Assembly: GCA_017539125.1 (NCBI GenBank)
Contig: JAFYHO010000054.1
Coordinates: 12,171 to 76,170, forward strand
Length of the DNA stretch: 64,000 bases
Direction of reading: 5' to 3'
Source: Actinomycetaceae bacterium
GTDB lineage: Bacteria > Actinomycetota > Actinomycetes > Actinomycetales > Actinomycetaceae
Shown: one piece after another, positions 7,107 through 42,510 of the stretch
Numbering within the stretch: position 1 is the stretch's first letter
Layout: every line of letters starts with the position of its first letter
Position numbers and translations under genes: made by a program
Notes under the pieces: generated by a model
The model's input: only the letters and a program-made list of their open reading frames with translations
Databases searched by the model: none
What the model was told of the DNA's origin: nothing

Positions 7107-7150
7107 AGTCTTATCCTCTATGAAATCTGCGGACGGGCGCTATAGCTTTG

Positions 7151-7178: not shown

Positions 7179-7200
7179 ATTTCTTTTTTCGTCAACCTCA

Positions 7201-7582: not shown

Positions 7583-7593
7583 ATTGGGAGAAG

Positions 7594-8658: not shown

Positions 8659-8667
8659 CGAGTGTCC

Positions 8668-9336: not shown

Positions 9337-9384
9337 GCTCCTACCCTACTGCCCTCAAGTCTTTAAGGCAATGACGGGAGAGGG

Positions 9385-18398: not shown

Positions 18399-18648
18399 TG
18401 ATTTCCCTTCTACTACTTTCACCGATTAAATAGTGATTTTCCTGCATTTTAACAGAAGAAGATAAGTGCTACAACGAGAGAAAACAGTGTAGGCGCAATG
18501 GAGCCCCTTCATCGTAATCCGCTACTTATCTAAAAGCAGGCCTACCATCCGCATGTCAGGTGAACAAAACAATCTCAGGGAATGAATGTGATACAGTCAC
18601 ATCAAAAAGTAGTTACCGCTAAAGCCCATGCCTTGGGGAGAAGAAAAG

Positions 18649-19798
18649 ATGGATAAAACCACACCTAAGTCCACTAAAAGCAATCAAACTACACCAATAC
18701 GCACCCGAATTGCATGGTTGGCATTGCACGCTCTATTGCCATAATTTCCATTACTCTCAATCACGCGGTTAATAGGAGTTTTTCTGTCTATCACGGGCAG
18801 CATAACGAATTCGTTGAATTGCCGTTATGGGTTTCCGTTACTGAAGCAACTGTGGCCACATTCAGCCGACTTGGTGTCCCGCTTTTCTTGATGATTACAG
18901 GCGCATTGATGCTGCACAGGGATTATGAAAGCAAAGGACGCATCTCCCGTTTTCTCAAATATAATTGGCTTCAACTGCTTATTACAACCGAAATATGGTT
19001 GACGATAATGTTTTGGTATATACAGTTACTACCAAAGTCGGTTCTGCGTACAGACGGTATTGGAGAATGTCTGAAAGATTTTTTCTGTACTTTATTGTTC
19101 ATAGATCCAGTCACAATGGGAAATATGTGGTACATGTCGATGATACTGTGCGTCTACTTAATGATTCCGATTCTCGCAATAGGCCTTAAAAGAATTGATG
19201 TCCGCTTTTTGCTTTACCGATGGCTATCGTAATCTTCAGTAATTACATATTGCCAGACATTAATGCCGTGAAGAAAGTGTTGGGATTTGAAAAACAATTA
19301 ACTACTGAGCTTGCAGGTAACAATGTTTTTTCGATGTTTGTTGTATGCATACTTATTGGTTATTTCGTAGTTCATCATAATGTAATGGGAAAGATAAGCA
19401 CGCCAGTGCTCATCGGACTGACCATCGTATCTTTTGTTGCCTTCTGCGCATTTCAGCTTTGGTTTTTCTCCGCTGACTATGATTACGTAATCCGCTACAA
19501 CAGCTGCTTTCCCCTGATAACGGCAACATTTCTTTTTGAACTTTTACATAGGGCGCAACCTGGCAAACAGATTAGCAGGATTGCAGAAAAACTATCAAAA
19601 ATGGCTCTCGGAATTTACTTCGTCCATATTTGTATCATGGAAGGGCTTATGGCTCTTATTAATCACTATCACTGGGATATAACGCATTTGTCGAGACTTG
19701 CTTTTCTAGAGCTGGTTTCATTCTTTGGATCAATACTGATTATTCTGATTTGTGAAAAGTCGGAACTGATGAAAAAGTATCTTTTCATCATCAAGTAA
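18649..19798 (+). pseudogene. acyltransferase-3 family O-acyltransferase interrupted by two frameshifts
   Basis: Three frame-shifted pieces. 18649-18744 reads MDKTTPKSTKSNQTTPIRTRIAWL.... 18714-19232 reads ..VGIARSIAIISITLNH...GVPLFLMITGALM.... 19220-19798 holds further TM segments. RIAWL+GIARSIAI matches RLEWLDIAKGIAI of the intact paralogue at 27142-28218. The breaks coincide with a GG(G) run near 18717-18721 and a T5 run at 19206-19210. Confidence 0.65.
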
Positions 19799-19893
19799 GC
19801 TGTGCAATTGCATATCATTTATCCTCCTTAAGTTGCGTCTTTCCTTATCGGAGGAAATAATGAAGGGGACTGCACTACTGGGAAAGGTTCATC

Positions 19894-20958
19894 ATGTATT
19901 TCCTTGATGAGAAGGTTCGGAATCTTCATCGTATTTTTGATCAGAATGCTCGACGTGGCTATCTGCGTCTTGATTTGAACGAGAATCCTGGCGGTCTGCC
20001 TCAAGAACTTATTGATAAAGCCTTCGACGGGGTCATTACTCCCGAGTTTGTTGCACAGTACCCCGAAACTCTACATTTCACTGAGGTACTCGCGAAACAC
20101 TTGGGTACAGACATTTCCCATGTGTGCCTAACTAATGGTTCATCTGAAGCTATCCGTTACGTCATCGAAGCCTTTACCTCAGATAATGGTCGTATTGTTG
20201 GGGTTGTTCCCTCGTATTTCATGTTCCAGATTTATTCCGAAATGTACGGGAAAAATATCGTTCAGGTGCCGTATCGTGACGATTTGAGTATGTACGTGGA
20301 AGATATTATCGCTGAGCTAACCGAGGATACTGAGCTACTGATTTTACTCAACCCCAATAACCCCATGGGGAACGTCTATACCCGTGAAGAATTTGAACAG
20401 ATTATGACGGTCGCTAGGGAAAAGGAAATAACTGTCCTTGTCGATGAGGCCTACCATTATTTCTATCCAGAAACGTTCCTTGACTATGCCTTGAATGAAG
20501 AACACGTCTTTGTGACTCGTACTTTCTCCAAAGCCTTTTCCATGGCAGGGTGCCGCCTCGGCTATGTCATCGGCTGGCCTGAGGGTATTGCGATGGTTCA
20601 AAAGCTGTGTACGCCCCACAATACGAATGCTTTTGCCATGCAGATGGCAGAAACCATTTTGGAAACCCCTGGAGCAATCGAAGGTCTTATAGAGCGCTTC
20701 AGCAAAGGCCGTTCTTATCTTATCGACGCGCTCGATGAACATGGTTATAAGTATCAAGGCCAGGCAGGTAACTTCCTGTTTATTCAACCTAAAACAGATG
20801 CCCATACGATTGTTGCCCGTATGAAAGAAGAAAAGAAAATCCTCATCAAGGTATACCCCGATGTGGGCCATCTCGGCACCTGCCTACGCGTCACCATCGG
20901 AGAAAAGCAATATATGGAGCAATTCCTAAATGCCCTCCTAGAACTCGACCGCCTCTGA
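19894..20958 (+). CDS. class-II (HisC/CobD-type) PLP-dependent aminotransferase
   Basis: Motifs LDLNENPGGLP, NPNNPMG, and the PLP-lysine context TFSKAFSMAGCRLGY. Confidence 0.8.
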   Translation: MYFLDEKVRNLHRIFDQNARRGYLRLDLNENPGGLPQELIDKAFDGVITPEFVAQYPETLHFTEVLAKHLGTDISHVCLTNGSSEAIRYVIEAFTSDNGRIVGVVPSYFMFQIYSEMYGKNIVQVPYRDDLSMYVEDIIAELTEDTELLILLNPNNPMGNVYTREEFEQIMTVAREKEITVLVDEAYHYFYPETFLDYALNEEHVFVTRTFSKAFSMAGCRLGYVIGWPEGIAMVQKLCTPHNTNAFAMQMAETILETPGAIEGLIERFSKGRSYLIDALDEHGYKYQGQAGNFLFIQPKTDAHTIVARMKEEKKILIKVYPDVGHLGTCLRVTIGEKQYMEQFLNALLELDRL

Positions 20959-21063
20959 ACTCTGCTCGGCATTTTTGGCGCTTTAACTTGCGTCTTTTCC
21001 TAGAGAAAGAAATAATGAAAGTTAGATTGCCATTGCGATAAAACCGCGAGTAAAAGGATTCAT

Positions 21064-21909
21064 GTGAAGAATAACAAGACAGTTAGTAAACAATACTTGA
21101 CTCCTGTTGAGCTACACAGCGAACTTCTGTCTATTTTGCGAGCTTTCGCCTCTTTCTGCGATTCCCACAATCTCCGCTACACACTTGTCGGCGGCTCGAT
21201 GCTGGGCGCTGTGCGCCATCAAGGATTTATTCCATGGGACGACGATATTGATGTCGGTATGCCACGCCCCGACTATGAGAAGCTACGAACTCTCGAGGCT
21301 GAGTTTTACGAAGAGACAGGTTATAAGCTCTCTGGCTATCGTTCGCTCAAACTTAAAGATTCTCCAATGATAAAGATAGAAAATGAGCAGATTAACTGCT
21401 TGGAGATGGGGACAGTTCCCGTCAAGCTCTGGATTGACCTCGTTCCCGTTGACGGCCTTCCCGCAAACGACCGCTTGAACTGGGTGGTTTGCCAAAGCGC
21501 ATTTGTCGTGCGACGAGTCCTGTCAATCATGCTTACTCCACGTAATGAGCGCTCTGGCAGTTTTGGTGGATTTATCAAAGACAAAATCGTTGGCCCCACG
21601 ATATCGGCAGTGCCGGGTATTGCAGTTGCGACATCAAAACTTCTCACTACTATTGCGAGGCGAATTCCTTTCGGTTCTTCTGCTCACGCTGGCATCGTAG
21701 CTTTTGGTATATATCGCGACGCGGAACGTATCTCTTTGAATGGCTGGACGGAGACTGTAGAGGTAGATTTCGAGGGAGAGAAGTATCGTGGGATTAGCTG
21801 TTGGGACGAGTATTTAAGCCAGCTGTACGGCGATTACATGAAACTTCCGCCCGAGGAAAAACGCGAAACGCACGGGCTTAGCGCGTGGCGAGTAGAGGAG
21901 GAGCAATGA
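21064..21909 (+). CDS. licD: LicD-family phosphotransferase (paralogue 1)
   Basis: GTG start after an AAAAGGA SD. Motifs GGSMLGAVRHQGFIPWDDDIDVGMPRPDYEKL and C-terminal LYGDYMKLPPEEKRETH. Confidence 0.85.
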   Translation: MKNNKTVSKQYLTPVELHSELLSILRAFASFCDSHNLRYTLVGGSMLGAVRHQGFIPWDDDIDVGMPRPDYEKLRTLEAEFYEETGYKLSGYRSLKLKDSPMIKIENEQINCLEMGTVPVKLWIDLVPVDGLPANDRLNWVVCQSAFVVRRVLSIMLTPRNERSGSFGGFIKDKIVGPTISAVPGIAVATSKLLTTIARRIPFGSSAHAGIVAFGIYRDAERISLNGWTETVEVDFEGEKYRGISCWDEYLSQLYGDYMKLPPEEKRETHGLSAWRVEEEQ

Positions 21910-22736
21910 GCGAGCTTCTCAGCCTCGAAGAGCTGCAAAAAGTGTATATAGAGCTCCTCGCGGATTTTGACAGCATATGTTCTGCGCACGGTTTGCGTTA
22001 TGACCTGTGTGGTGGCTCGATGCTGGGCGCTGTGCGTCACGAGGGCTTCATTCCGTGGGATGATGATGCAGACGTGTCGATGCCGCGTCCTGATTATGAC
22101 CGCCTCATCGAGTTGGCGCTCGCGGGCGAACTGCAACTTCCAGAAGGCCGTGAAATTGTCTGCCAGCAGGCAGGAACTTTTGCACGCCCCTACGCTCGTC
22201 TTGTCCGCCATGATGTGGAGAGAGTTGCACAGTATTTGAGTGATGATGACTGCCCTTATATTGGGCTTGATATTTTCACGGTTGACGGTTTCCCTTCGTC
22301 TAACGTAGCTTTTAAGGCACAAACAAAACTTCTCAAAGCCTTGCGTTCGGCGCTTCTTGTCTCCCTATCCAAGCCGGGAACGTCCTCGCGTTCTGGAGCC
22401 GTGGCAAAAGCTAAAGATGTGCTTCGCCCGCCGCTTCAAGCAATCGGTTCTATGCATCTTGCTGCCCTTTATGAAAAAATGTGCCGTCTCGTGCCGTATT
22501 CCAAGGCAGAATATGTCGGTATTGCTAACGGGATGTACGGAACGAAAGAGCGCTGGCGCAAGGACGATATGCTGCCGCAGCAGCAGTGGAAATTTGAGGG
22601 CTTATCCTTGCCGGGTTATCGCAATGCCGATATGTATTTGTCGAACTTGTACGGCTCATACATGGATTTGCCGCCCGAATCAGAGCGCGAACCTCACTGC
22701 GACGAGGCGCGTTGGGCCGGAAAGGACACACAATGA
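21906..22736 (+). CDS. licD: LicD-family phosphotransferase (paralogue 2)
   Basis: I take the start as ATG 21906, which forms an ATGA overlap with the upstream stop and is preceded by GGAGGA. Motifs GGSMLGAVRHEGFIPWDDDADVSMPRPDYDRL and LYGSYMDLPPESEREPH. Confidence 0.85.
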   Translation: MSELLSLEELQKVYIELLADFDSICSAHGLRYDLCGGSMLGAVRHEGFIPWDDDADVSMPRPDYDRLIELALAGELQLPEGREIVCQQAGTFARPYARLVRHDVERVAQYLSDDDCPYIGLDIFTVDGFPSSNVAFKAQTKLLKALRSALLVSLSKPGTSSRSGAVAKAKDVLRPPLQAIGSMHLAALYEKMCRLVPYSKAEYVGIANGMYGTKERWRKDDMLPQQQWKFEGLSLPGYRNADMYLSNLYGSYMDLPPESEREPHCDEARWAGKDTQ

Positions 22737-23566
22737 CATCGGATTTGCGTCGTCTTCAACTTGAAGAGCTTGCTATTCTTGAGGATTTTGTTGCTGCCTG
22801 CGAGGAATACGGGCTTCGCTACTATCTGCTTGGCGGCACTTTACTGGGCGCCGTGAGGCACAAGGGTTTTATTCCATGGGACGATGATGTCGACGTAGCG
22901 ATGCCGCGCGTCGATTACGACCGTCTCATTTCTTTGTGGGATTCACGCGAATGTGAATACACAATGGTTACACCCGATACTCCCGGCTATCGTTATCCGT
23001 GGGCGCGCCTCGAATCATCGCGAGTACGTATCCGTAATCATTCAGCGAATGTTCCACGTATTGAAAACGCGTGGATTGATATTATTCCTTTTGATTCAAT
23101 ACCCGATAATCCTGTGCTCCGCACCTTACATAAAACACGGCTTTCTCTGTGGTGGAATCTCAATCAAATTGTGCAATTTGATGAGCTTGTCGACCAAAAA
23201 CGTCAGCGTTCTTTGCCAGGCAGACTCGCTATTTCTCTTGCGTCTAAGTTCAAGTGGATTGGTTCGCTTGTTGATTATAAGACGACGTTGCGTGGCCTCA
23301 ATCGAACGCTCATGAAGTATCCGTACGATATGGACACTCGCGATATTATTAACTTCCTTGCCGCCTATGGCTTTGACGAGATTTTCCCTAGGCAGGCCTT
23401 TGCCGAGACAGCTTTGTATGACTTTGAAGGTAGGCAATTTGTTGGTCCGAAAGATTACCACGAGGTGTGTCTTCGCATTTACGGCGATAGCTACATGGAG
23501 CTTCCTCCTGAAGACGAACGCAATAAGCACAATGCAGAAATTCTCGATGATGACGAATTAGGGTAG
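22733..23566 (+). CDS. licD: LicD-family phosphotransferase (paralogue 3)
   Basis: I take the start as ATG 22733, which forms an ATGA overlap with the upstream stop and is preceded by AAAGGA. Motifs GGTLLGAVRHKGFIPWDDDVDVAMPRVDYDRL and IYGDSYMELPPEDERNKH. Confidence 0.85.
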   Translation: MTSDLRRLQLEELAILEDFVAACEEYGLRYYLLGGTLLGAVRHKGFIPWDDDVDVAMPRVDYDRLISLWDSRECEYTMVTPDTPGYRYPWARLESSRVRIRNHSANVPRIENAWIDIIPFDSIPDNPVLRTLHKTRLSLWWNLNQIVQFDELVDQKRQRSLPGRLAISLASKFKWIGSLVDYKTTLRGLNRTLMKYPYDMDTRDIINFLAAYGFDEIFPRQAFAETALYDFEGRQFVGPKDYHEVCLRIYGDSYMELPPEDERNKHNAEILDDDELG

Positions 23567-23650
23567 GATTGAGCACATGAGCGCCCTGACTGTCAAAGAC
23601 AATAAGCGACCTGCGGAGGCTCTGGACGTTTTGCATCGGCGAGGTATTGT

Positions 23651-24985
23651 ATGAAAAAGGTACTGACATACGGCACGTATGATTTGCTCCATCATGGGCA
23701 TATTGCTTTGCTTGAGCGTGCCAAGGCTCTCGGCGATTATCTGATTGTCGGTATTACTTCCGACCAGTTCGACCGTGACCGTGGCAAGCTGAATGTACGG
23801 CAGTCCCTTGTCGAGCGAATCCGCGCAGTCGAAGCCCTTGGGATTGCAGACGAAATCATTGTCGAGGAATATCAAGGGCAAAAGATTGACGATATCGTCG
23901 CCCATGACGTCGATATTTTCACGGTCGGCTCCGATTGGGTGGGCAAGTTTGACTATCTACGTGAGTATTGCGAGGTTGTCTATCTTGAGCGAACGGCAGG
24001 GGTTTCTTCCTCGGAGATTCGCGAGGAAGAATCAGGGATTGTGCGCCTCGGCATCATTGGCGGCGGCTCTCGCGCTCTCAGATTTGCCCGCGAATGTCAG
24101 TATGTCTCTGGTGTAGAGATTATTGGTGTGACGGCAGCTAATTCAGGGGGCGATTCATCTTTCGCTGACGGCATGTCTCTGCTGGTCTATTCGTCTCTGG
24201 CTGAGTTACTCCCCGATATTGACGCGCTCTACATTATTGACACCGTCGATACGCACGCCACGCTTATTACCCAAGCGCTTGAGGCAGATTGTCACGTCAT
24301 CTGCGAGACCCCGATGTTCATGTCTGAGCACGAAGCACGTGAAGCTTTTGCTTTGGCTGAATCTCGCGGGCTTGTTCTTTTTGAAGCTGTCAAGACCTTG
24401 TGGGCTCCCGCCTTTAGGCGCTTGCTTCTTCTCGTAGAATCGGGCGCTATTGGCGAGGTTAAAGCCATTGATGTTGCCTGTACCCAGATTCCCGCTGATT
24501 TGAAGAGGGTGCGCGAAAACGTTTATGAGGGCAGTCTGTATGACTGGGGAACGCTTGTTCTCCTACCTATCTTCCAGCTCCTGGGAACGTCCTATCATTC
24601 TTGCGAACTTTACGAGATGAAAGACGGCGATTTTTCTGCTTTCGTTCGTGGAAATATCGCTTATGAGAATGCCATCGCAACTTTCTCTGCTGGTCGAGGA
24701 ATAAAGAGTGAAGGTCACCTTATCATTACCGGTACTGAAGGATATATTTACGTTCCTGCTCCGTGGTGGAAGCCCGAGTACTTCGAGATTCGTCATGAAG
24801 ACTTACGCGAAACAAAGCGTTTCTCTTTCGCTTTCGAGGGCGAGGGCATGCGATACGAGATTTTGGAGTTTATCGCCATGATTCGCACTAGAAATCTCGA
24901 CAACCGTCTTCTTTCCAAGGACCACATCTTCGCTGTTGCAGATATTATTTCTCGCCTGCACATTGGGGATACTGTCCAAATCTAG
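23651..24985 (+). CDS. bifunctional protein: TagD-like glycerol-3-phosphate cytidylyltransferase (N-terminal) fused to a Gfo/Idh/MocA oxidoreductase (C-terminal)
   Basis: The N-terminal ~130 aa read MKKVLTYGTYDLLHHGHIALLERAKALGDYLIVGITSDQF...FTVGSDWVGKFDYL...ERTAGVSSSEIR, with an HxGH motif and close resemblance to B. subtilis TagD. The remaining ~310 aa start VRLGIIGGGSRALRFA..., a Rossmann fold, and continue ...HVICETPM..., which is Gfo/Idh/MocA-like. Confidence 0.8.
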   Translation: MKKVLTYGTYDLLHHGHIALLERAKALGDYLIVGITSDQFDRDRGKLNVRQSLVERIRAVEALGIADEIIVEEYQGQKIDDIVAHDVDIFTVGSDWVGKFDYLREYCEVVYLERTAGVSSSEIREEESGIVRLGIIGGGSRALRFARECQYVSGVEIIGVTAANSGGDSSFADGMSLLVYSSLAELLPDIDALYIIDTVDTHATLITQALEADCHVICETPMFMSEHEAREAFALAESRGLVLFEAVKTLWAPAFRRLLLLVESGAIGEVKAIDVACTQIPADLKRVRENVYEGSLYDWGTLVLLPIFQLLGTSYHSCELYEMKDGDFSAFVRGNIAYENAIATFSAGRGIKSEGHLIITGTEGYIYVPAPWWKPEYFEIRHEDLRETKRFSFAFEGEGMRYEILEFIAMIRTRNLDNRLLSKDHIFAVADIISRLHIGDTVQI

Positions 24986-24997
24986 GAGATGTGCTAT

Positions 24998-26056
24998 ATG
25001 CCGCGGTTATCTGTCATAACACCTTTTTACAACGTTTCAGAATTACTTTTTTCTGCATGCGTCGATTCTATTCTTAACCAAGATTTCACAGATTTTGAGT
25101 GGATTATCGTTGACGACGGCTCAGATGAAAAAAGTGCTACGATGCTGGATAGTTATGCCGCGCGAGACGAGCGCATACATGCGTATCACTGTGGCAATGA
25201 GGGCGTTTCTGCCGCGCGCAATAGTGGGCTCGATGTGGCAGTGGGCGACTATTTCACTTTTGTCGATGCCGACGATCTCGTAACACCTATTTTTTTCAGT
25301 AACTCCACAGAAATACTCGACCGCACTAACGCCGATATCGCCTATGGCTTCCTCCGACGAACTGGTGGCAATTCTATCCTTGGTGTTGACGCAGGCGATT
25401 TGCGAGAAGAAGTTTTGACAGGAAATAAGCTGTCGCTTTTCCAGCGTGGCGTACTCGCGGGAGAGAAATTGCCTGGTCTGGCAGAAGTAAAGAAATACGC
25501 TCCGTATCCAGTTGCCCCAAAAGTTTATCGTCGAAAAGTATTTAGTGAACTCCGCTTTAGGCGCGGTATGCCTGTCGGCGAAGATTCCCTTTTCAATGCC
25601 ATGTCACTCGATATAGCCCAATCCATCGTTCTTATTCCAGAGCATTGGTATAACTACATCATTCACCGCCACTCTGTTTCCCAAGCGCCCGCATTGGATA
25701 AATTATTAGACCAGCTTGCCGGGTTTTCCGCATATATTGACGAGGGTTCTGCGCGGGGGTGGAACAAGTCTGATGTCGGCATGAGGTATGCTCACGCACT
25801 CGTAAATGTCCTTTCCGTCCTTGCTAAGTACACATCTATTGGTGAAATGCGTCGTTTTACAAAAAACGCTCTTAAGCTTGATGCTGCAGCATGGCTGGGA
25901 GATATTGACATATCCAACTACGAGCTCTCGCCACAGTTCCGCCTGCTTGCCACAATGATTCACCATAAAAGGGCGAATGCGATTGTTGCTCTTATGAAAG
26001 CGCAACCTACAGTTGATGTCCTGAAAGCACGTGTTCACCGTATGCTAAAGAATTAA
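24998..26056 (+). CDS. family-2 glycosyltransferase
   Basis: LSVITPFYNVSELLFSACVDSILNQDFTDFEWIIVDDGSDE...VDADD. The start ATG 24998 lies 9 nt after AGGAG. The track start at 24989 abuts the SD. Confidence 0.85.
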   Translation: MPRLSVITPFYNVSELLFSACVDSILNQDFTDFEWIIVDDGSDEKSATMLDSYAARDERIHAYHCGNEGVSAARNSGLDVAVGDYFTFVDADDLVTPIFFSNSTEILDRTNADIAYGFLRRTGGNSILGVDAGDLREEVLTGNKLSLFQRGVLAGEKLPGLAEVKKYAPYPVAPKVYRRKVFSELRFRRGMPVGEDSLFNAMSLDIAQSIVLIPEHWYNYIIHRHSVSQAPALDKLLDQLAGFSAYIDEGSARGWNKSDVGMRYAHALVNVLSVLAKYTSIGEMRRFTKNALKLDAAAWLGDIDISNYELSPQFRLLATMIHHKRANAIVALMKAQPTVDVLKARVHRMLKN

Positions 26057-26129
26057 CCAGTTTTAGATAGCTTGTCGCATAATCTTTGATTTATAGGCAC
26101 AATGGATGAGAGAGTATTGAGGAGGAACC

Positions 26130-27137
26130 ATGGCGGAGAAAGTACTCACTATCTCTGTAGCTGCATACAATGTTGCGGACTATCTGAAGCAGACGCTTGA
26201 ATCATGCCTTGCACTATCCTACAAGGATTTTGAGGTACTCATCGTTAATGATGGCTCAAGCGACACAACAGCTCAGATTGCCGCCGACTATGAAAAACAC
26301 TATCCTGACATCTTCAAACTTGTATCTAAAGAAAACGGCGGCTATGGTTCAACGGTCAATACTGCTCTTGAGGTGGCACAAGGTAAGTATTTTAAGCTTT
26401 TGGACGGTGACGACTGGTTTGACACCGATGGTTTAGAGTCTCTGCTTAGCGTTTTACGCGATAACGATGTTGACCTTGTTCTCACTCCTTATGTCCGTCA
26501 AGAAGAAGGTGTTGGGACAAAAATTGTTGATCAGGCAGAGGGGATTGAGGAACGCATATGGGATTTTGACGAGTGCCCTATTCCTTGGCGTATCTCCATG
26601 CATTCAATGGCATATCGCACCGCATTAGTTCGCGAATCGGGTCTGCGTCTCGAGGAACATTGCGTCTATACTGACACTGATTACATTACGGAACCTTTGC
26701 ATCGTGTTCACACAGTCTATGTAAGCCACACTCCTGTTTATCAGTATCGGATAGGGCGCGAAGGCCAATCAATGGAACGTGCGGGGCGTATTCGCCACCG
26801 AGGCGAAATGGAATCGCTCATTTATCGTATGCTTAAGCGTTGGCCGTCTCTCGAAAATACAAATACTACTGCGGAACGGGTATGCCGAGCTTGGCTTATT
26901 GATGATATTGTCGGTCACCTTCAACTTCTTTATTCTATGGATGCTTCCGATCAGATAAAGGACGAGATTCTCCGTTTTACTGAGTATGTGCGTACAGCTG
27001 CACCAGCGCTTTACCGCGATACTCTCAAGCATTCCCAGTGGGCTTTCCTTTTTGATAAAGGTGGCGCTCGCGGATATAAAGCAGTCAGCGCAGCTTATCA
27101 CGCTTTTCTTGCTGTAAAAGATGCTCTGAAACGCTAA
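26130..27137 (+). CDS. family-2 glycosyltransferase
   Basis: LTISVAAYNVADYLKQTLESCLALSYKDFEVLIVNDGSSD...LDGDD. This is the last gene of the + operon. Confidence 0.85.
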   Translation: MAEKVLTISVAAYNVADYLKQTLESCLALSYKDFEVLIVNDGSSDTTAQIAADYEKHYPDIFKLVSKENGGYGSTVNTALEVAQGKYFKLLDGDDWFDTDGLESLLSVLRDNDVDLVLTPYVRQEEGVGTKIVDQAEGIEERIWDFDECPIPWRISMHSMAYRTALVRESGLRLEEHCVYTDTDYITEPLHRVHTVYVSHTPVYQYRIGREGQSMERAGRIRHRGEMESLIYRMLKRWPSLENTNTTAERVCRAWLIDDIVGHLQLLYSMDASDQIKDEILRFTEYVRTAAPALYRDTLKHSQWAFLFDKGGARGYKAVSAAYHAFLAVKDALKR

Positions 27138-27141
27138 TACA

Positions 27142-28218
27142 TTATTTGGATATTTTCCGCACAAGGGCGACAAGGAGCAAATCGTATCCGAAACGCAGCA
27201 AAGATTTAGCAATCCAGCTATCTGCAATTGGCGCGACTGAAATTGCGCTGAGCATAAGGAGCCTGCCATCGATAGCGTGCATTGCGTAGATTTCAAGAGA
27301 ATGTCTCCCCGTCCATGCCACTGCCTTCTCGGCGTATCGAAGAATGGGAACAGTACGCAGGGCTTCAATGCCCAAAGAAATATAACAAAGGGCTAAGGTT
27401 CCAGCAAGCGCGCCGCATATCGCGAGTAGATAGTTGTCTCCCCACGCGCGCGATGACATTTCAAATGTCGAGTACCGTGTAGCAATTATCCAGAGTATAA
27501 ACGCCACCACTCCAACAAAGACGAGCTTTAGACGCACTGCATTGAGCACTTTTATGAGCTGACCGAAGAACATGAAGCCGACGGCGAGCAATGCCAAATC
27601 AAAATCAAAAGGCAGATATACCAGTAACTTTTGCGGGACAACAAAGGCGAGGGCAAGCATCAGCACACCAGTGCCAGCGATTATCCACGGGTTATTATCC
27701 TGTTTCCATTTAGCGGCAATACGCAACAAAGCATTAGCAAGAATACGCGCAAGGAATAGGCACCATAAAAACCATGCCATTCCAACCCCGTAAAAACCGC
27801 CGCCAACATAATCAAGTCGAACACCAGCCCACATGCTTTGTGGCATCCATTGTGTCGACGGGTAACCTGCGGGAAAGACAAGTGCCTGTGCGAGCGCGAG
27901 AAAACGCGAAGATATTGGCGCATCACTTGTGAGCACATTCGGCAATACAGCTATCGCCACAATGAGTATGTAGGGCAAAAGTAGGCGCTTCGCCGAAGAC
28001 TGCAGAACTGTTTTCCACGGTTTTGCCCGCAACGTGAAGCCTGCGAGAATAAAGAACGCTGGCATATGAAAGGAAAAGATAAGTTGGCGAACTGTCCCGT
28101 GGTCAACCGTATGCCCAACCACAACTAAAAAGATGGCAATGCCTTTAGCAATGTCTAGCCATTCCAAGCGAGACGAAGCAGGCAAATCACCAGATTCTCT
28201 CGTTTTCTGCGCCATCAA
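27142..28218 (-). CDS. acyltransferase-3 family O-acyltransferase (intact)
   Basis: RLEWLDIAKGIAIFLVVVGHT plus about 10 TM segments. Its stop lies 4 nt from the convergent GT2 stop. Confidence 0.8.
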   Translation of the reverse strand: MMAQKTRESGDLPASSRLEWLDIAKGIAIFLVVVGHTVDHGTVRQLIFSFHMPAFFILAGFTLRAKPWKTVLQSSAKRLLLPYILIVAIAVLPNVLTSDAPISSRFLALAQALVFPAGYPSTQWMPQSMWAGVRLDYVGGGFYGVGMAWFLWCLFLARILANALLRIAAKWKQDNNPWIIAGTGVLMLALAFVVPQKLLVYLPFDFDLALLAVGFMFFGQLIKVLNAVRLKLVFVGVVAFILWIIATRYSTFEMSSRAWGDNYLLAICGALAGTLALCYISLGIEALRTVPILRYAEKAVAWTGRHSLEIYAMHAIDGRLLMLSAISVAPIADSWIAKSLLRFGYDLLLVALVRKISK

Positions 28219-29684
28219 TTTTCCTTTTTCTTCAAACCACTTGTATCGAGAAGCTCAAGGAAAAAAGGATCTTTACGTATAAGTAACCAAGCAAAAGTGC
28301 AGGCAAGGAAGAAGATTGCTCCAATTCCCACTTCAAGGAATAGACCTGGATAACTCAATCCCCACATCGCACGCGTCACGTGAGCAACATAGCGCACCAG
28401 TACTGCCATGAGAACACCAATAATAAAGAAAGGAATAATGCGAGCAAAGAAACGACCAACTGGTAATTCTTTGCGAACCATGATGACTTGGGCAACCAAA
28501 ACAGCAACTTCTGCAGCAATTGTCGCTATTGCTGCCCCTAAAGACCCGTAGGGTTTAATAAGAATCAGGTTTAAGACAATATTGACAACAGCTCCAGCGA
28601 GAACCGAGATAGTGAAAAACCAGTCTTTATGACTGGGAAGTAAGTATTGATTGCCAAGAACATTCGTCGACGCAATCAAAGGGACGACTCCAGCTAAAAC
28701 AATCATCGTAGGAATTGCAGGACTGAATGTACCTGATAAAAACTTTGTCACAAATTCGGGGGCAATTGCTCCAATGCCAAAAGCGGCAGCGAAAGCCGCA
28801 ATCATCATAAACCAGAAGGACAACTCCAACGCATGTAAACCTAAGGCTCTGTCTTCCTCGTTATCACTGGAAAAATACGAAGACATACGAGGAAGCATGA
28901 CCGCGCCAAGTGCAGTAATAACGGCGAGAGGAATCTTGGCAACACGCTCAGAGTACTCGTAGTAACCAGTTTGAACCATTGTCGATATCGCGCCAAGCAT
29001 GATTTTGTCTAAAACAGTGTATAGAGAGATGGCGATGACGGGAATGAAAAGGCGGAGTGAGGGACGAAAATGGGCGCTAATCTCTTGCCATGAAGGAGTG
29101 TAGAAATCGACATACCGCGGGATAAAAGGCAAAACGAGAAGCTGAGAAACTAAATAGCCACCCGCAATGATAATCACGTAAATCCACAGATCTTCATAGG
29201 ATTTCACCAAAGTAAAAATAAGTACAAGCTCGGTGACTTTAACGATCACATTGCGAATTGTCGGAATTTTGAACTCTTCAACTCCAAAAAGGAGCCATGA
29301 AGCATTCAACGCTGCCGAAATAATCCAAAAACACCAGAAAAAAGCTATCTTATGTCCACCTTTAGGCTCGGGGATCCAATACACAAAATAAATTGCTAAA
29401 ACTATCGCAGCGATAAGCAGCTGGCTAACATAGGCGCTCCAAAACGCTTTTGACAATTCCTGGCGATTATGGCGTTTCATTGCCACAAGGCGCACGCCAT
29501 ACGTCGACATTCCTAAGGTTGCAAAAAGAACAAAATACTGAGTAATTGAAGAAGTATAAGAGTAGACGCCCACGCCAGTCGGTTCAAGTACACGAGATAA
29601 ATATGGAGTCGTAATAAGCGGAGTAATAATCAGGAGTACCTGATACGCCGCGTTATAGAGAAAACTGTGCCGTAGGCGTGGCAT
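28215..29684 (-). CDS. Wzx-type oligosaccharide flippase (MOP superfamily)
   Basis: 489 aa and polytopic. The N-terminus LYNAAYQVLLIITPLITTPYLSRVLEPTGVGVYSY is typical of polysaccharide-biosynthesis flippases. Confidence 0.8.
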   Translation of the reverse strand: MPRLRHSFLYNAAYQVLLIITPLITTPYLSRVLEPTGVGVYSYTSSITQYFVLFATLGMSTYGVRLVAMKRHNRQELSKAFWSAYVSQLLIAAIVLAIYFVYWIPEPKGGHKIAFFWCFWIISAALNASWLLFGVEEFKIPTIRNVIVKVTELVLIFTLVKSYEDLWIYVIIIAGGYLVSQLLVLPFIPRYVDFYTPSWQEISAHFRPSLRLFIPVIAISLYTVLDKIMLGAISTMVQTGYYEYSERVAKIPLAVITALGAVMLPRMSSYFSSDNEEDRALGLHALELSFWFMMIAAFAAAFGIGAIAPEFVTKFLSGTFSPAIPTMIVLAGVVPLIASTNVLGNQYLLPSHKDWFFTISVLAGAVVNIVLNLILIKPYGSLGAAIATIAAEVAVLVAQVIMVRKELPVGRFFARIIPFFIIGVLMAVLVRYVAHVTRAMWGLSYPGLFLEVGIGAIFFLACTFAWLLIRKDPFFLELLDTSGLKKKEN

Positions 29685-29704
29685 AGAACTCCTTAGATAA
29701 ACAT

Positions 29705-30763
29705 CTAATCACTCAAAGCAACTATAGTACGTTCGAGTCCTTCAGGCATAGTTAAACTGGCTTTCCAGCCAAGGGCGTGGGCGCGGGCAGGATTGAGGAT
29801 TGCACGGGTTGCTGTGGAATACCCTGCTCTCTCTGTTTCGTCTGGCAAATCGAAAATGACCTGAGTGCCAGCACTCTCAGCAATCGCAGCCGCAATATCC
29901 CGCAAGCTCATATCGCAACTCGAATCAGCGAGGTTATAGGCAGCACCCGCGTCGCCACGCGTGAGCACCCAGAGCATTCCGCACACAGCATCACGCACAT
30001 GCAAGTAGGAGAAGAACTGCGTTCCTTCCGATTTCAACACGACATCTTCGCGTGCCACACCCTTAAAAATGAACTGGCTAATCGCTTTAGTATCCGAGGG
30101 CAGAACTGTTGCTCCAAAAATGCGCGGCAGACGGGGAATGAATACGGGCAGATTCTTCTGCGCCATATAGGCCTGGCAGAGCGCTTCGCCTGCACGTTTG
30201 GCTTCAGGATAGCCAGCACGTAGAGTATTGCAATCAATATAGCCCAAATAATCTTCACTGAAAGAATCAGTATCGCCGCGATTTTCTCCGTAAATCTCAA
30301 CAGAAGAGGCAAAAACAAATGCGTCTGCTTCCGAAGCAACTCCATACTCCAAAAGATTCGATAAACCCGTCATATTAGACGCGATAGTACCAATCGGGTC
30401 GCTCGCATAGGCGCGAGGGTGAGTGGCAGAAGCGAGATGAAGAATAATATCGGCACGCTTATTTGGGCGCGCTCCATGAACCGACACATCGCACACTTCA
30501 AAAGAAAAATCGTCACGATCAAAATACGGCAGACGCTTGCGTGCTTTTTCCTCATTACGCCCCAAAGCAAGAACGTGGCAATCCAAATGCGCTATATCGT
30601 TTTTCAACAGCAAAACATCGATGAGAAATGTGCCGACCATACCGGTCGCCCCAGAAATCGCAATAGTTTTACCGCGCAACTTTTCCCAATCAAGCCCGCT
30701 TGCGCATACGTATTCACAATCTTCGTGATACAGAGGATTATCTAAATAAGTCGTCGCGCCCAT
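29705..30763 (-). CDS. extended short-chain dehydrogenase/reductase (NAD-dependent epimerase/dehydratase family), candidate ribulose-5-P reductase
   Basis: Rossmann motif ISGATGMVGTF and catalytic YxxxK (YPEAKRAGE). It lies immediately downstream of the TarI-like gene. Confidence 0.75.
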   Translation of the reverse strand: MGATTYLDNPLYHEDCEYVCASGLDWEKLRGKTIAISGATGMVGTFLIDVLLLKNDIAHLDCHVLALGRNEEKARKRLPYFDRDDFSFEVCDVSVHGARPNKRADIILHLASATHPRAYASDPIGTIASNMTGLSNLLEYGVASEADAFVFASSVEIYGENRGDTDSFSEDYLGYIDCNTLRAGYPEAKRAGEALCQAYMAQKNLPVFIPRLPRIFGATVLPSDTKAISQFIFKGVAREDVVLKSEGTQFFSYLHVRDAVCGMLWVLTRGDAGAAYNLADSSCDMSLRDIAAAIAESAGTQVIFDLPDETERAGYSTATRAILNPARAHALGWKASLTMPEGLERTIVALSD

Positions 30764-30778
30764 TTCATGTACCTCGTC

Positions 30779-31504
30779 TTACTTCAACCACGTATCGGAA
30801 TCTGCAGCGAGATATGCCTTGAAAAGTTCCAAATCATCTTTTGTCGTCAACTTGATATTCTTATCCGAACCAGCAGCAAAATACAAAAGATAACCAAGCT
30901 CAACCATCATCGTATTGGTGTAATGCGAGCCGTGGACACCAATATTTTCTGCAAAAGCACGCTCATACGCACTCGAGAGTAAATCGTAGCGGTACGCTTG
31001 TGGAGTCGAAACTCTGCGCAGCGTCTCGCGCGGAATAAACTCACTCGTCGTCTCAGGGTCTTCGGGATCAACACGGAAAATCTGCTCGTTATAAGGCAGA
31101 GACGTCACGGCATTGCCATGCTCACCAGCCACACGCAATACATCGCTCAAAACAGCAGAATCCACAAGCGGGCGAATACCGTCATGAATAATAATCAAAT
31201 CATCTGGCGCAGCGAATTCACCGACAGCTTTAACACCGTTATAAATCGACTCTTGTCCACTTGCGCCACCGGGAACAATCGTCACCAGCTTCTCGATATT
31301 GAATTGCTTGGCATAAGCGCGCGCAACATCAATCCACGACTCAATGCAGACCAAAACAATCGAATCAACCTCCGGGTGACGCTGGAAAGACTCAAGCGTA
31401 TAAATCAAGACAGGTTTGTCATACACGTTAATGAATTGCTTAGGAATATCCTGACCCATACGAGAGCCGGAACCGCCCGCGATGATTACCGCGATATTAC
31501 TCAT
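30779..31504 (-). CDS. IspD/TarI-family cytidylyltransferase (probable D-ribitol-5-phosphate cytidylyltransferase)
   Basis: MSNIAVIIAGGSGSRMGQDIPKQFINVYDKPVLIYTLESF...; 241 aa. Confidence 0.8.
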   Translation of the reverse strand: MSNIAVIIAGGSGSRMGQDIPKQFINVYDKPVLIYTLESFQRHPEVDSIVLVCIESWIDVARAYAKQFNIEKLVTIVPGGASGQESIYNGVKAVGEFAAPDDLIIIHDGIRPLVDSAVLSDVLRVAGEHGNAVTSLPYNEQIFRVDPEDPETTSEFIPRETLRRVSTPQAYRYDLLSSAYERAFAENIGVHGSHYTNTMMVELGYLLYFAAGSDKNIKLTTKDDLELFKAYLAADSDTWLK

Positions 31505-31513
31505 CTCTATCTC

Positions 31514-32281
31514 CTAAAAACTTTCGGTGTATCGGCGACCGAGGAACTTGGCTGCTAAGAAACCGCCACCCTTCTTCAGCCAATTCGTCTTCTCTGTTGA
31601 CATCACAGGACACTCAATATAATCGTAGCCTTTTGTATTTAGCCATGCATCTATTAGAAGCTCTGAAAGCCTACCGACCACACGCGCTTCAAAAGCCGTC
31701 ATGCCCTCAAAATCGAGACGCTTTTCCACCTCGAAAAGAATCGGGAAAAGCCACGAGCAATACTCGTCAAAAAGATCACGCCGCATAAGCATCATATTGA
31801 AAATATGTGCACCGCGAGCGCTGAGCACTTTTTCATATGCTGGCAACGATTCGGGAGACAGCTCGCCAAGCACATCACGCACAACATCAAGATGCGCCGC
31901 ATCAAAAGTATGCGCATAGTGATTACCGACGGTTTCGATATAGTAGTTGCGTTTTTTCGGCAGGATAATCGGACACCGCTCAAGCATCTGGGCAGCTTCT
32001 GCACCGCTGAGTACGCCCCTCTCCCCGCGTCCAGCGAAATGTCGACGATAATGCGCCAAACCCAGAGCATCTTCGTCTTTGAGATTCTTCCATGCCCAAT
32101 ACAAAGCGGTCAGCTCACTGTAACGCGGATTGGAGGCTGAGATATTCTCTCCCTCGTCATCGCGTTGAAAATTAAGCTGCGTATCAGAATTCGCTGCACC
32201 CACATGAACGGGGAGATACAGAGAATCTTCTGGTGTCCAATAAGGCTTGTGTGCAGCAATAACGATACGCGCCATAATCAT
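31514..32281 (-). CDS. DUF4422-family protein (putative glycosyltransferase)
   Basis: IVIAAHKPYWTPEDSLYLPVHVGA...NPRYSELTALYWAWKN...LAHYRRHF matches my memory of DUF4422 proteins from EPS and capsule loci. Confidence 0.65.
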   Translation of the reverse strand: MIMARIVIAAHKPYWTPEDSLYLPVHVGAANSDTQLNFQRDDEGENISASNPRYSELTALYWAWKNLKDEDALGLAHYRRHFAGRGERGVLSGAEAAQMLERCPIILPKKRNYYIETVGNHYAHTFDAAHLDVVRDVLGELSPESLPAYEKVLSARGAHIFNMMLMRRDLFDEYCSWLFPILFEVEKRLDFEGMTAFEARVVGRLSELLIDAWLNTKGYDYIECPVMSTEKTNWLKKGGGFLAAKFLGRRYTESF

Positions 32282-32330
32282 TGGCCCCTAAAGCCTGCGT
32301 TTTTATAGCTGTTTCCATAGGAGTAATTTT

Positions 32331-32972
32331 TCATTTTGCTCCCTTAGCTTTGAGCACAACTGACACAGCAGAAAAACCAATACGCAAATCAAGTAAAAGA
32401 CTTTTATGGAGGGAATAATACTTTTCTAGTTCCAAACGAGTTTCAAAATCAACATCGTTACGACCATTAATTGCCCAATACGAAATAATGCCTGGCTTTG
32501 CATTAGTAATAATGTCGCAATCTTCACCCATATCGTCACGTTCACTCGGAAGATATGGCCGATTACCGATAATGGACATATCGCCCTTCACAACATTGAA
32601 GAATTGAGGGAATTCATCAATGCTAAATTTGCGAAGCTTTTTCCCCATATTAGTAATACGTGGATCATTTTCAAGTTTCTTATTTTTTTCATACTCGGCA
32701 GCATAATGAGGATTTTCAGATAAAAAGGTCGAAAGCATCTCCTGAGCTTTTGGCACCATCGTACGAATTTTATACAGTTTGAAAAGCTGACCACCTTCAC
32801 CAATGCGGTCTTGAACCAAAATAATTCGATCGTTGTCTTTATCGACAAGATAAATAATTTTGACGCCCAAAAGAACAAGAAGCGCGAAGACTGAGCCTAC
32901 TGAACCTACGCAGATATCGAAAAAGCGTTTCGATATTGCGTAGAACGCGCTTTCTTTGCGAGCCATGCCCAC
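32331..32972 (-). CDS. small (monotopic) undecaprenyl-phosphate sugar phosphotransferase, the initiating enzyme
   Basis: One N-terminal TM segment followed by the bacterial sugar transferase core: LFKLYKIRTM...DEFPQFFNVVKGDMSIIGNRPYLPSE. Confidence 0.85.
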   Translation of the reverse strand: MGMARKESAFYAISKRFFDICVGSVGSVFALLVLLGVKIIYLVDKDNDRIILVQDRIGEGGQLFKLYKIRTMVPKAQEMLSTFLSENPHYAAEYEKNKKLENDPRITNMGKKLRKFSIDEFPQFFNVVKGDMSIIGNRPYLPSERDDMGEDCDIITNAKPGIISYWAINGRNDVDFETRLELEKYYSLHKSLLLDLRIGFSAVSVVLKAKGAK

Positions 32973-33112: not shown

Positions 33113-34099
33113 ATGAAAGTTCTTATCGCAGGTGGCGCTGGATACATCGGCTCACACACAGTTGCACACATGATTCGCGAGGGCTACGAGGTCGTTGTGC
33201 TCGATAATTTGGCGACGGGTCACCGCGAAGCTGTCCACCCAGACGCGGTTTTTTATGAGGGGGACGTGCGTGACCGCGCTTTTCTCGATGAGCTTTTTGC
33301 TCGCGAAAACGATATCGAAGCTGTGATCCATTTCTGCGCATGGTCGCTGGTCGGCGAATCGATGGAAAAGCCACTGAAATACTACGAGAACAATGTAGGC
33401 GGAGCGATTGTGCTGCTCGAAGCGATGATTGCTGCCGGTATCGACAAAATCGTCTTTTCTTCGACAGCCGCAACCTATGGCGAGCCGAAGTCTATTCCGA
33501 TTCGCGAGGACGACCCAACCGAGCCGACCAACACCTATGGCGAAACAAAGCTCGCTATGGAAAAGATGTTTAAGTGGGCGAGCGTTGCGCACGGTCTACG
33601 TTTTGTGTCCCTGCGATATTTCAACGCCTGCGGTGCGGCGCAGGGCGGCGCGATTGGCGAAGCGCATGCCACCGAGACGCATCTTATCCCGCTGATTTTG
33701 CAAGTTCCGCTCGGCAAGCGCGAACAGATTTTTATTTTTGGTGACGATTATGCCACCGAGGACGGCACGTGTATCCGCGATTATATCCATGTGGACGATT
33801 TGGCTCAGGCACACGAGAAAGCCGTGAAGTACCTGGCTGACGGTGGCCAGTCCGATATTTTCAATCTCGGTAACGGGACGGGCTTCTCGGTGCGTGAAGT
33901 CATTGACGTGGCTCGTGAAGTCACAGGGCATGAGATTCCCGAAATGGTCGCTGAGCGGCGAGCTGGCGACCCTGCCGTGCTAGTCGCTTCGAGCGAGAAG
34001 GCACGCGAAGTCTTGGGCTGGAATCCCGAAAAGGCAGATTTACGCGAGATTATCGGCTCTGCCTGGACATGGCATAAAAACCATCCCAACGGCTTTTAG
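33113..34099 (+). CDS. galE: UDP-glucose 4-epimerase
   Basis: MKVLIAGGAGYIGSH..., YGETKLAME (YxxxK) and DYIHVDDLA; 328 aa. The track ORF start at 32936 is a spurious upstream extension. Confidence 0.9.
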   Translation: MKVLIAGGAGYIGSHTVAHMIREGYEVVVLDNLATGHREAVHPDAVFYEGDVRDRAFLDELFARENDIEAVIHFCAWSLVGESMEKPLKYYENNVGGAIVLLEAMIAAGIDKIVFSSTAATYGEPKSIPIREDDPTEPTNTYGETKLAMEKMFKWASVAHGLRFVSLRYFNACGAAQGGAIGEAHATETHLIPLILQVPLGKREQIFIFGDDYATEDGTCIRDYIHVDDLAQAHEKAVKYLADGGQSDIFNLGNGTGFSVREVIDVAREVTGHEIPEMVAERRAGDPAVLVASSEKAREVLGWNPEKADLREIIGSAWTWHKNHPNGF

Positions 34100-34680: not shown

Positions 34681-34824
34681 GTGAGCTCCTCTATACGCAA
34701 TTCTCTCTGATATTCACTCTAGCACTTCTTCAAAGGCAATAAAACGCGGTAGAAAAAACTAAAACATTGATTCAACGAATAATTAAATGAATATAATGAA
34801 CTGAGACAAGAGAAGGAAAATCAT

Positions 34825-35385: not shown

Positions 35386-35414
35386 CCCGCCATCACTTCT
35401 TCCACAGGGAAAAG

Positions 35415-42286: not shown

Positions 42287-42510
42287 ATGACAACCTTTCT
42301 CTCTACTAACACCTCTAAAATAAAGGAATACGTTCCCAAAGATGAGAGGACATAGGATTAAAGTCCTACGACACGTAGTATTCCACACCTCAGGAAACTA
42401 CACGGTTCTTTTTATGTGTGAAACCCTACCCTATATGAAAGCTTACTATTTCTTTACTAATCTGCTCCTCGACGGCATTGCACATGGCAATTTCGCTCAC
42501 AATACGACAG

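Follow-up and report, generated by a model that had tools for sequence, protein, structure and literature searches.

A possible CDP-amino-alcohol pathway in a teichoic-acid-like glycan island of an uncultured Actinomycetaceae bacterium

The gene island at positions 18,649 to 32,972 of the DNA analysed here encodes enzymes of families that activate alcohols as cytidine diphosphate (CDP) derivatives and transfer them to surface glycans, and the question that it raises is which alcohols these might be. The window, that is the whole stretch analysed, comprises 64,000 nucleotides of contig JAFYHO010000054.1 (assembly GCA_017539125.1, Actinomycetaceae bacterium), and in the original prediction its island was read as a locus for a wall-teichoic-acid-like polymer, decorated or joined by three LicD transferases drawing on two CDP-polyol routes. 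We scanned about 50 open reading frames (ORFs) of the window, most of at least 150 amino acids, for Pfam families at the gathering score, and applied NCBIfam equivalog and subfamily cut-offs to the island enzymes. The ORF listing and the Pfam matches place every gene family named in that prediction where it had been put; at the NCBIfam level, no island enzyme reached an equivalog assignment.

The answer that we propose centres on a fusion protein (23651-24985, plus strand) in which a TagD-like cytidylyltransferase (residues 1-130) is joined to a non-canonical Gfo/Idh/MocA-like domain (residues 131-444), recognised by the families CTP_transf_like and GFO_IDH_MocA. The explanation that we favour, with moderate confidence in it taken jointly, is that an uncultured gut Actinomycetaceae bacterium acquired the region horizontally as a modular island for a cell-envelope glycan, which would be Wzx-dependent and carry decorations derived from a CDP-alditol and a CDP-amino-alcohol. 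A more specific proposal, made tentatively and with a good deal more doubt, is that the fusion works with an interchangeable aminotransferase in a pathway, so far undescribed, that leads to a CDP-amino-polyol, in its simplest form CDP-serinol, which LicD enzymes, and TagF-like ones in other genomes, would install or polymerise, giving zwitterionic decorations or teichoic acids of the poly(serinol-phosphate) type.

The cytidylyltransferase fusion and its aminotransferase partners

The N-terminal half of the fusion matches Bacillus subtilis TagD (PDB 1COZ) across the whole domain (E 1e-38) and keeps the motifs of the cytidylyltransferases, with HHGH at residues 14-17 (HxGH) and RTAGVSSS at 114-121 (RTxGISTT); its score on the equivalog model TIGR01518 is 119.1 bits, under the cut-off of 165.4. 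The second half has a Rossmann match to PF01408 (62 bits, cut-off 24) and contains the motif GIIGGGSRA. TagD had been taken to make CDP-glycerol here, an assignment that does not suit a protein which falls under the equivalog cut-off, is fused to a Gfo-like domain and is genomically coupled to an aminotransferase or a dehydrogenase. That coupling instead points to a modified, probably aminated, donor.

Fusions of this kind are widespread. The protein database holds more than 8000 homologues, with both domains present in 120 of 120 among the matches listed, and 567 confirmed loci were found among the species representatives of GTDB, in Clostridia, Bacteroidota (Segatella copri and S. bryantii), Akkermansia, Fibrobacter, Eggerthellaceae (Coriobacteriia) and Actinomycetota, including Actinomycetaceae. 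The same contig scan of GTDB species representatives revealed no close relative of the island, the best identity to the fusion being 53%.

The genes flanking the fusion were clustered in 78 loci drawn from many phyla. An aminotransferase lies within two genes of the fusion in 38 of the 78, usually immediately upstream; across the survey the aminotransferases were of class V (PF00266) in 29 cases and HisC-like, of class I/II (PF00155), in 10. A short-chain dehydrogenase of the adh_short family is found within two genes, immediately downstream, in 20 loci, and the two partners occur together in none of the 78 (Fisher 9e-8, with loci treated as independent). LicD or TagF-like transferases are encoded within four genes of the fusion in 44 loci. 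Residues of the Gfo-like domain track the class of the partner, so that the fusions appear to fall into two subfamilies: those linked to a dehydrogenase have Tyr302 in 19 of 20 cases and His257 in 20 of 20, and those linked to an aminotransferase have xWGPT and mostly Arg257. The lysine of the EKP motif is absent from all partner-linked fusions and is kept in 6 of 17 surveyed fusions without an adjacent partner gene. If the CDP-amino-polyol proposal is right, the product of the sister subfamily, the one paired with the short-chain dehydrogenase, would be another donor, without an amino group.

In the island itself the proposed partner is a HisC/CobD-like aminotransferase of class I/II, dependent on pyridoxal phosphate (PLP), encoded at 19894-20958 on the plus strand (PF00155, 151 bits), which keeps the TFSK motif of the PLP lysine. 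We considered and rejected a housekeeping role as HisC: the protein scores 233.9 bits on the hisC equivalog TIGR01141, under the cut-off of 276.55, its gene is low in guanine plus cytosine (GC), and a link to the fusion recurs in other phyla, homologues at 61-70% identity lying adjacent to the fusion or a few genes off in loci of Clostridia and Eggerthellaceae.

The closest relatives of the locus are L087 and L090, the fusion being 92% identical in one of the two and 78% in the other. They have a different arrangement, in which the LicD gene or genes are followed by a class-V aminotransferase and then by the fusion, the stop codon of the aminotransferase overlapping the start of the fusion by 4 nucleotides. 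In the island, the 85-bp gap between the third LicD gene and the fusion holds a relic of such a gene, found with tblastn: the 3' end, of about 29 codons (23568-23651, 84 bp, plus strand), of a deleted class-V aminotransferase gene, whose translation is 69% and 66% identical to the C-termini of the Aminotran_5 proteins of L090 and L087 and whose DNA is 86% identical to that of L090 and colinear with it into the fusion gene. The deletion removed about 1.0 kb from the body of the ancestral class-V gene, and at the junction the alignments of the two sides share 13 bp. Upstream of the first LicD gene there is a 2.4-kb insert, absent in the relatives, which carries the HisC-like aminotransferase together with a split acyltransferase. 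We read these features as a non-orthologous displacement, in which the HisC-like aminotransferase has apparently replaced the class-V one. Such a swap of aminotransferase class is hard to explain unless transamination is part of the pathway of the fusion.

The relatives of the aminotransferases give some indication of what may be aminated. The class-V enzyme resembles 2-aminoethylphosphonate (AEP) transaminases, among them PDB 6PD1, a PntC::aminotransferase fusion whose logic is to aminate, then to cytidylylate and then to decorate (PMC6697681). For the class-V aminotransferase of L090 (8146-9237) there is a near-orthologous solved structure, PDB 3F0H (E 3e-137), which is functionally unannotated. 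The substrates of HisC and SerC, imidazole-acetol phosphate and 3-phosphohydroxypyruvate, both have the form X-C(=O)-CH2-O-P. It is from these substrates, from the likeness to AEP transaminases and from the TagD-like half of the fusion that we propose an aminated skeleton derived from a three-carbon 2-keto phosphate. A phosphonate (AEP) donor, suggested by the class-V likeness, was set aside, as no phosphoenolpyruvate (PEP) mutase or decarboxylase family occurred in the window scan.

The fusion and the aminotransferase would thus yield a CDP-activated three-carbon amino-alcohol, most simply CDP-serinol, and this could happen in either of two orders. CDP-glycerol might be converted to CDP-dihydroxyacetone and then transaminated to CDP-serinol; this order is weakened, as the Gfo-like domain lacks both catalytic residues, Lys and Tyr. 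Alternatively, dihydroxyacetone phosphate might be transaminated to serinol phosphate, which would then be cytidylylated to CDP-serinol. A literature search returned nothing relevant on CDP-serinol, CDP-aminoglycerol, CDP-dihydroxyacetone or serinol in teichoic acids, and the relevant enzyme terms were absent from a preprint on the qim operon of S. pyogenes.

Parts of this logic are familiar. In phosphonate tailoring (AEP transaminase with PntC; the Tde1415 fusion, PDB 6PD1) a class-V aminotransferase likewise makes an amino-phosph(on)ate, and a cytidylyltransferase coupled to it physically or genomically activates the product for surface decoration; the island, however, has no PEP mutase or phosphonopyruvate decarboxylase, has an additional Gfo-like domain and uses a cytidylyltransferase of the TagD (PF01467) rather than the LicC/PntC family. 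NtdC/NtdA, GnnA/GnnB and WbpB/WbpE are oxidise-then-transaminate modules with Gfo/Idh/MocA dehydrogenases, and like the present pair they combine a Gfo-family domain with a PLP aminotransferase, for a polyol or sugar in activated or phosphorylated form. They differ in that the fusion is without the catalytic Lys and Tyr, in that its aminotransferases are of class I/II or V and not of the DegT type, and in the proposed scaffold, a CDP-linked C3 compound and not a uridine diphosphate sugar.

LicD transferases, the alditol donor and glycan assembly

The transferases that would use such donors are encoded in a row on the plus strand as LicD1 (21064-21909), LicD2 (21885-22736, gene-caller start 21906) and LicD3 (22712-23566, gene-caller start 22733), with scores of 114, 122 and 130 bits on PF04991 (cut-off 22.6). 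Each keeps the motif GGxxLGAVRHxGFIPWDDDxDVxMPRxDY, with its acidic WDDDxD, and a C-terminal YGxYMxLPPExxRxxH, so that the catalytic residues on which the original prediction depended are intact in three of three; apparently all are competent as phospho-alcohol transferases. The N-terminal motif of LicD3 aligns to the catalytic region of FKRP (6KAJ), a LicD relative that is a ribitol-phosphate transferase. The three proteins are about 30-32% identical to one another and much closer to their counterparts in the relatives (LicD1 75% to the first LicD of L087; LicD2 87% to LicDa of L090 and 75% to LicDb of L087; LicD3 91% to LicDb of L090 and 75% to LicDc of L087), from which they would seem to be old paralogues, conserved as an ordered trio across related Actinomycetaceae contigs and presumably with distinct acceptor or donor specificities. 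We also considered a phosphocholine donor and rejected it, there being no choline kinase, LicC or transporter family among the scanned window ORFs.

A second donor route lies on the minus strand, where an IspD-family cytidylyltransferase for a sugar phosphate or alditol phosphate (30779-31504; PF01128, 140 bits) is followed by an extended, Epimerase-type short-chain dehydrogenase/reductase (SDR; 29705-30763, PF01370), a probable CDP-ketose reductase. The best PDB matches of the SDR are 8V4G and 8V4H (E 7e-31), the CDP-6-D-fructose reductase HS5.17 of C. jejuni, and adjacent PF01128 and PF01370 genes have been described as the signature of a route in which a ketose phosphate is cytidylylated and then reduced, yielding CDP-glucitol or CDP-mannitol (Mnp1/Mnp2) (PMC10918830). 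In the island PF01128 adjoins PF01370 and the SDR is homologous to HS5.17. The IspD protein matches structures of ribitol-5-phosphate cytidylyltransferases (E 1e-24), but its score on the corresponding NCBIfam model NF001183 is 129.4 bits, under the cut-off of 166, and it falls below all NCBIfam cut-offs; neither a TarJ-type (medium-chain) nor a Bcs1-type (classical SDR) reductase was found, the partner being the extended SDR. CDP-ribitol made by a TarI/Bcs1-like enzyme, as had been supposed, is therefore not what these genes indicate. By the logic of HS5.18/HS5.17 and Mnp1/Mnp2, the pair would turn a ketose phosphate into its CDP derivative before reducing it, and the product is likely a CDP-alditol, with ribitol, arabinitol, mannitol and glucitol as candidates. 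The HS5.18/HS5.17 (CDP-6-glucitol) and S. pneumoniae 35A Mnp1/Mnp2 (CDP-mannitol) systems have the same adjacent pair of genes; the likeness is at the family level only (E 7e-31), the substrate here could be a hexulose or a pentulose phosphate, and the present host is Gram-positive with a Wzx-type pathway. Of the two CDP-polyol activation routes originally proposed, then, the presence of two cytidylyltransferase routes stands, and the identities CDP-glycerol and CDP-ribitol are not supported.

In an Oscillospiraceae metagenome-assembled genome (MAG), locus L009 (about 6596-10564) joins an aminotransferase, the fusion, LicD, IspD and SDR in one gene block. The IspD and SDR proteins of the island are 72% and 55% identical to their homologues there, which suggests a cross-phylum transfer of a combined two-donor module. 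This likeness, together with the low GC of the island genes (39-53%, against 58% in TopA), is the basis for proposing a horizontal origin; no tRNA marking an insertion site was found at the island. The host itself is as first supposed an actinobacterium, TopA being 91% identical to a protein annotated 'MAG: Actinomycetaceae bacterium' and 67% identical to that of its nearest cultured relative, Arcanobacterium haemolyticum. An identical island (100% protein identity) is present on two independent metagenome contigs.

Assembly of the glycan can be followed through the remaining genes. The plus- and minus-strand operons converge with 4 nucleotides between their stop codons (27137/27142), and the minus-strand operon begins with a small monotopic phosphoglycosyl transferase (PGT; 32331-32972, gene-caller start 32966; PF02397, 165 bits), an initiating enzyme with one transmembrane (TM) segment that resembles the C-terminal domain of WbaP yet is under the NCBIfam cut-offs. 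It is followed by a DUF4422 glycosyltransferase of GT111 fold (31514-32281, minus strand; PF14393, 264 bits). DUF4422 has been linked to the GT111 galactofuranosyltransferase fold of WbbM, and to PamA (PMC12269835), and the protein is possibly a galactofuranosyl transferase; no glf gene was seen within the window. Beyond the IspD and SDR genes, the minus strand encodes a Wzx-type flippase (28215-29684; PF01943, Polysacc_synt, 102 bits, cut-off 28.2), a protein of about 13 TM-like segments, and an intact membrane O-acyltransferase of the Acyl_transf_3 family (27142-28218; PF01757, 91.5 bits; 8 TM-like segments), 69% identical to its L090 homologue. The Bac_transf and Polysacc_synt matches support the earlier view of a PGT-initiated, Wzx-flipped glycan locus. 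On the plus strand the fusion is followed by two GT2 glycosyltransferases (24989-26056, PF00535, 101 bits; and 26130-27137, PF00535, 108 bits), of which the second shares 36% identity with the GT2 encoded after the fusion in L090. The acyltransferase carried on the insert, also of the Acyl_transf_3 family, is split into two overlapping ORFs (18714-19232 and 19220-19798, plus strand; GC 0.39) which cover positions 6-154 and 182-324 of the PF01757 profile; the break falls close to a run of five T (about 19205), and neither L087 nor L090 has this gene, which is probably either a pseudogene or a frameshift of metagenome assembly. A divergently transcribed NAD-dependent epimerase/dehydratase (33113-34099, plus strand; PF01370, 200 bits; 328 amino acids by the L001 gene call) is a possible supplier of a precursor.

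From these genes, an oligosaccharide would be built on undecaprenyl phosphate at the cytoplasmic face of the membrane, initiated by the PGT and extended by three soluble glycosyltransferases (the GT111-like DUF4422 protein and the two GT2 enzymes). The LicD proteins would attach phosphodiester-linked alcohols from the two CDP donors, Wzx would flip the unit, and O-acylation would take place outside the membrane. The unit might then be polymerised by a Wzy_C-like protein encoded elsewhere, or stay unpolymerised, and would be ligated to the wall by enzymes encoded outside the window.

The original prediction had remarked on the lack of a polymerase, exporter and ligase in the island. The first and last of these observations hold, as neither Wzy nor LCP, and likewise no BY-kinase or TagGH, was found among the roughly 50 scanned window ORFs; the lack of an exporter does not, Wzx filling that role, as it does in the Gram-positive Wzx route. 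The scanned ORFs also contained no Glyphos_transf family (TagF-type polymerase) and no glycan-type ABC exporter, the one ABC2 system of the window being TetR-linked and YhgE/Pip-like. In this respect the island departs from classical wall teichoic acid synthesis (TagO/TagA/TagB/TagF, TagGH), whose TagF-type polymerase and TagGH exporter are not found in the window. In L087, from an Actinomycetaceae MAG, the three LicD genes, aminotransferase and fusion lie between housekeeping genes, with no PGT, Wzx or glycosyltransferase, and in L090 only a GT2 and an acyltransferase lie downstream of them before the contig end. The three LicD genes, aminotransferase and fusion would therefore be a portable, self-contained decoration cassette that uses assembly genes elsewhere, and since L087 carries it without assembly genes, the missing polymerase and ligase of the island are not anomalous.

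One candidate for either role lies in the window, a divergent membrane protein, putatively of the Wzy_C superfamily (53381-54628, plus strand), in which at least 8 TM segments are recognised, together with a long loop (residues 210-327). It is 100% identical to IKS49_02740 of an Actinomycetaceae MAG. The protein itself has no Pfam hit, even at E<=1; a profile search gathered 2479 relatives, of which 33 of 85 sampled match PF04932 (best E 8e-7), and its AlphaFold2 model (pLDDT 92.6) is without a Foldseek match in the PDB (best E 0.2). It is no more than a candidate for the polymerase or ligase of the island.

As a type, the island is ordinary: a Wzx-dependent, teichoic-acid-like locus of a known general kind, in which a new donor pathway is possibly embedded. 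Closest in logic are pneumococcal teichoic acid and the alditol-phosphate capsule loci. Pneumococcal teichoic acid is made with TarI/TarJ, LicD1/LicD2/LicD3 and the flippase TacF, its polymerase and LCP ligase genes lying apart from the donor and LicD genes. By description, the likeness consists in an undecaprenyl-linked unit made in the cytoplasm, several LicD paralogues and a flippase of the Wzx family; unlike the pneumococcal system, the island has no LicA/B/C choline genes, its reductase is not of the TarJ type, and its donor route has the Gfo-like fusion and the aminotransferase, both of which the pneumococcal pathway lacks. Nor are such polymers foreign to Actinobacteria, as had been thought: Streptomyces has poly(ribitol-phosphate) wall teichoic acids bearing lysine and phosphoethanolamine (bioRxiv 10.1101/2025.04.24.650519), and mannitol-phosphate wall polymers of Brevibacterium are cited in PMC10918830.

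Objections and competing explanations

Several considerations weigh against the amino-alcohol pathway, or against the joining of its genes with the assembly operon. In the Gfo-like domain the catalytic EKP has become ETP and DIGVY has become DWGTL (aligned to 3EVN and 4HAD); because the catalytic Lys, and in aminotransferase-linked members the Tyr, is lost, the dehydrogenase step is uncertain and the domain could be non-catalytic. The C3 skeleton is assumed, since the TagD domain lies under the TagD equivalog cut-off, and the statistic for mutual exclusion of the two partner classes takes phylogenetically related loci as independent. The plus-strand cassette is linked to the minus-strand assembly operon by adjacency only, and, as L087 illustrates, it can work with genes elsewhere. 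The locus could also be in decay, as the broken acyltransferase gene and the lost class-V aminotransferase might indicate. Lastly, the chemistry of the cassette might be the same as that of the pneumococcal CDP-2-glycerol pathway of Gtp1/Gtp2/Gtp3 and WchX (serotypes 15 and 23). Going by published annotations, that pathway has a dehydrogenase and a nucleotidyltransferase co-encoded with a third enzyme and a transferase for glycerol phosphate, a similar enzyme count and logic; by the same annotations those enzymes are separate, and Gtp3 is a phosphotransferase rather than an aminotransferase.

The alternative that survives best, although we think it improbable, treats the two operons as unrelated neighbours. 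The cassette would decorate a polymer made elsewhere, for instance a rhamnose-rich wall polysaccharide or a lipoglycan, and the minus-strand operon would make an independent Wzx glycan with the CDP-alditol only. This would fit the isolated cassette of L087 among its housekeeping genes, the GT2 and acyltransferase that are all L090 shows before its contig ends, and the presence of RmlD and a large GT4/GT1 protein 10 kb away. However, the minus-strand operon is without a LicD or TagF-like transferase, so at least one plus-strand LicD must serve the CDP-alditol, and the Oscillospiraceae block joins the aminotransferase, fusion, LicD, IspD and SDR, the LicD next after the fusion in loci of that family sharing 53-58% identity with LicD2.

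Also rather unlikely is a phospho-substituted capsule or exopolysaccharide that is released or held loosely, in the manner of the pneumococcal alditol-phosphate capsules, instead of being anchored to the wall. The combination of PGT, glycosyltransferases, Wzx, O-acyltransferase, CDP-alditol genes and LicD-type transferase does resemble pneumococcal cps loci with Mnp1/2 or Gtp1-3/WchX, but Wzy, a Wzd/Wze BY-kinase and a CpsA-type LCP protein were not found in or beside the island, and flanking secreted proteins with putative wall-polymer-binding modules fit, weakly, a ligand associated with the wall.

A still less probable explanation is that of the original prediction, namely a wall-teichoic-acid-like polymer from CDP-glycerol (TagD) and CDP-ribitol (TarI/Bcs1-like), with the HisC-like enzyme and the Gfo domain incidental. 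In its favour are the matches to TagD and to ribitol-5-phosphate cytidylyltransferase structures already given (E 1e-38 and E 1e-24) and the transfer of ribitol phosphate by the LicD relative FKRP. Yet both cytidylyltransferases are under their NCBIfam cut-offs, there is no TarJ or Bcs1 reductase, the SDR matches a CDP-ketose reductase, and plain CDP-glycerol synthesis leaves the fusion, and its tight linkage to an aminotransferase that swaps class, unexplained. That the island is decaying or inactive, as the frameshifted Acyl_transf_3 gene and the class-V relic might suggest, is very unlikely given that its other genes are intact, that the LicD motifs are conserved, that a second aminotransferase retains its PLP motif and that independent metagenome contigs carry the island with 100% protein identity.

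Flanking genes and biological meaning

To the left of the island, a secreted beta-helix protein with a C-terminal DUF5648 (16302-18422, minus strand) is 60% identical over residues 1-522 to a protein of L090, which carries CW_binding_2 and occupies the same flanking slot in the relatives. Low-GC secreted proteins with DUF5648 are also encoded at 40181-42388 (minus strand, LRR and Big_2) and at 55926-56816 (plus strand, two DUF5648 copies). DUF5648 may thus serve as a module for binding a wall polymer and vary together with the glycan island. The low-GC block has at its left edge a gene for a protein of 552 amino acids (14479-16137, plus strand; GC 0.46), PstS-like and phosphate-binding (PBP_like_2) in residues 324-532 only, with no family assigned to the N-terminal 320 residues.

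RmlD (42511-43356, minus strand) adjoins an 846-residue protein (43416-45956, minus strand) with a GT4 and two GT1 regions, and the two may belong to a pathway for a rhamnose-containing wall polysaccharide; neither RmlA/B/C nor an ABC exporter for glycans was found in the window. The interval from the island to the MurT/GatD genes encodes a YARHG-domain membrane protein (34123-34680, minus strand), a protein of 186 amino acids with no family and a C-terminal TM segment (34825-35385, plus strand) and a further GT2 (35415-36191, minus strand), and these genes (34123-36191) may extend the island rightward. Further off, a low-molecular-weight phosphotyrosine phosphatase domain with an 87-residue N-terminal extension (3194-4024, minus strand) has no BY-kinase nearby; its neighbours are a two-component system and an FtsX-like permease paired with an ABC ATPase.

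As a whole the island adds little, since phosphodiester-containing, Wzx-dependent wall glycans are well known, in Actinobacteria included. Its interest may lie rather in the embedded cassette, in which the loss of one aminotransferase class and the gain of another form a clean natural experiment that would pin the aminotransferase to the pathway of the fusion. Major gut commensals commonly carry the cassette, and few of their surface glycans have a solved structure. If the proposed pathway is true, it would be a third general way to put positive charge on anionic surface polymers, after phosphocholine/phosphoethanolamine and D-alanylation, and such charge bears on cationic-peptide resistance, phage adsorption, the anchoring of wall-binding proteins and zwitterion-dependent immune recognition.

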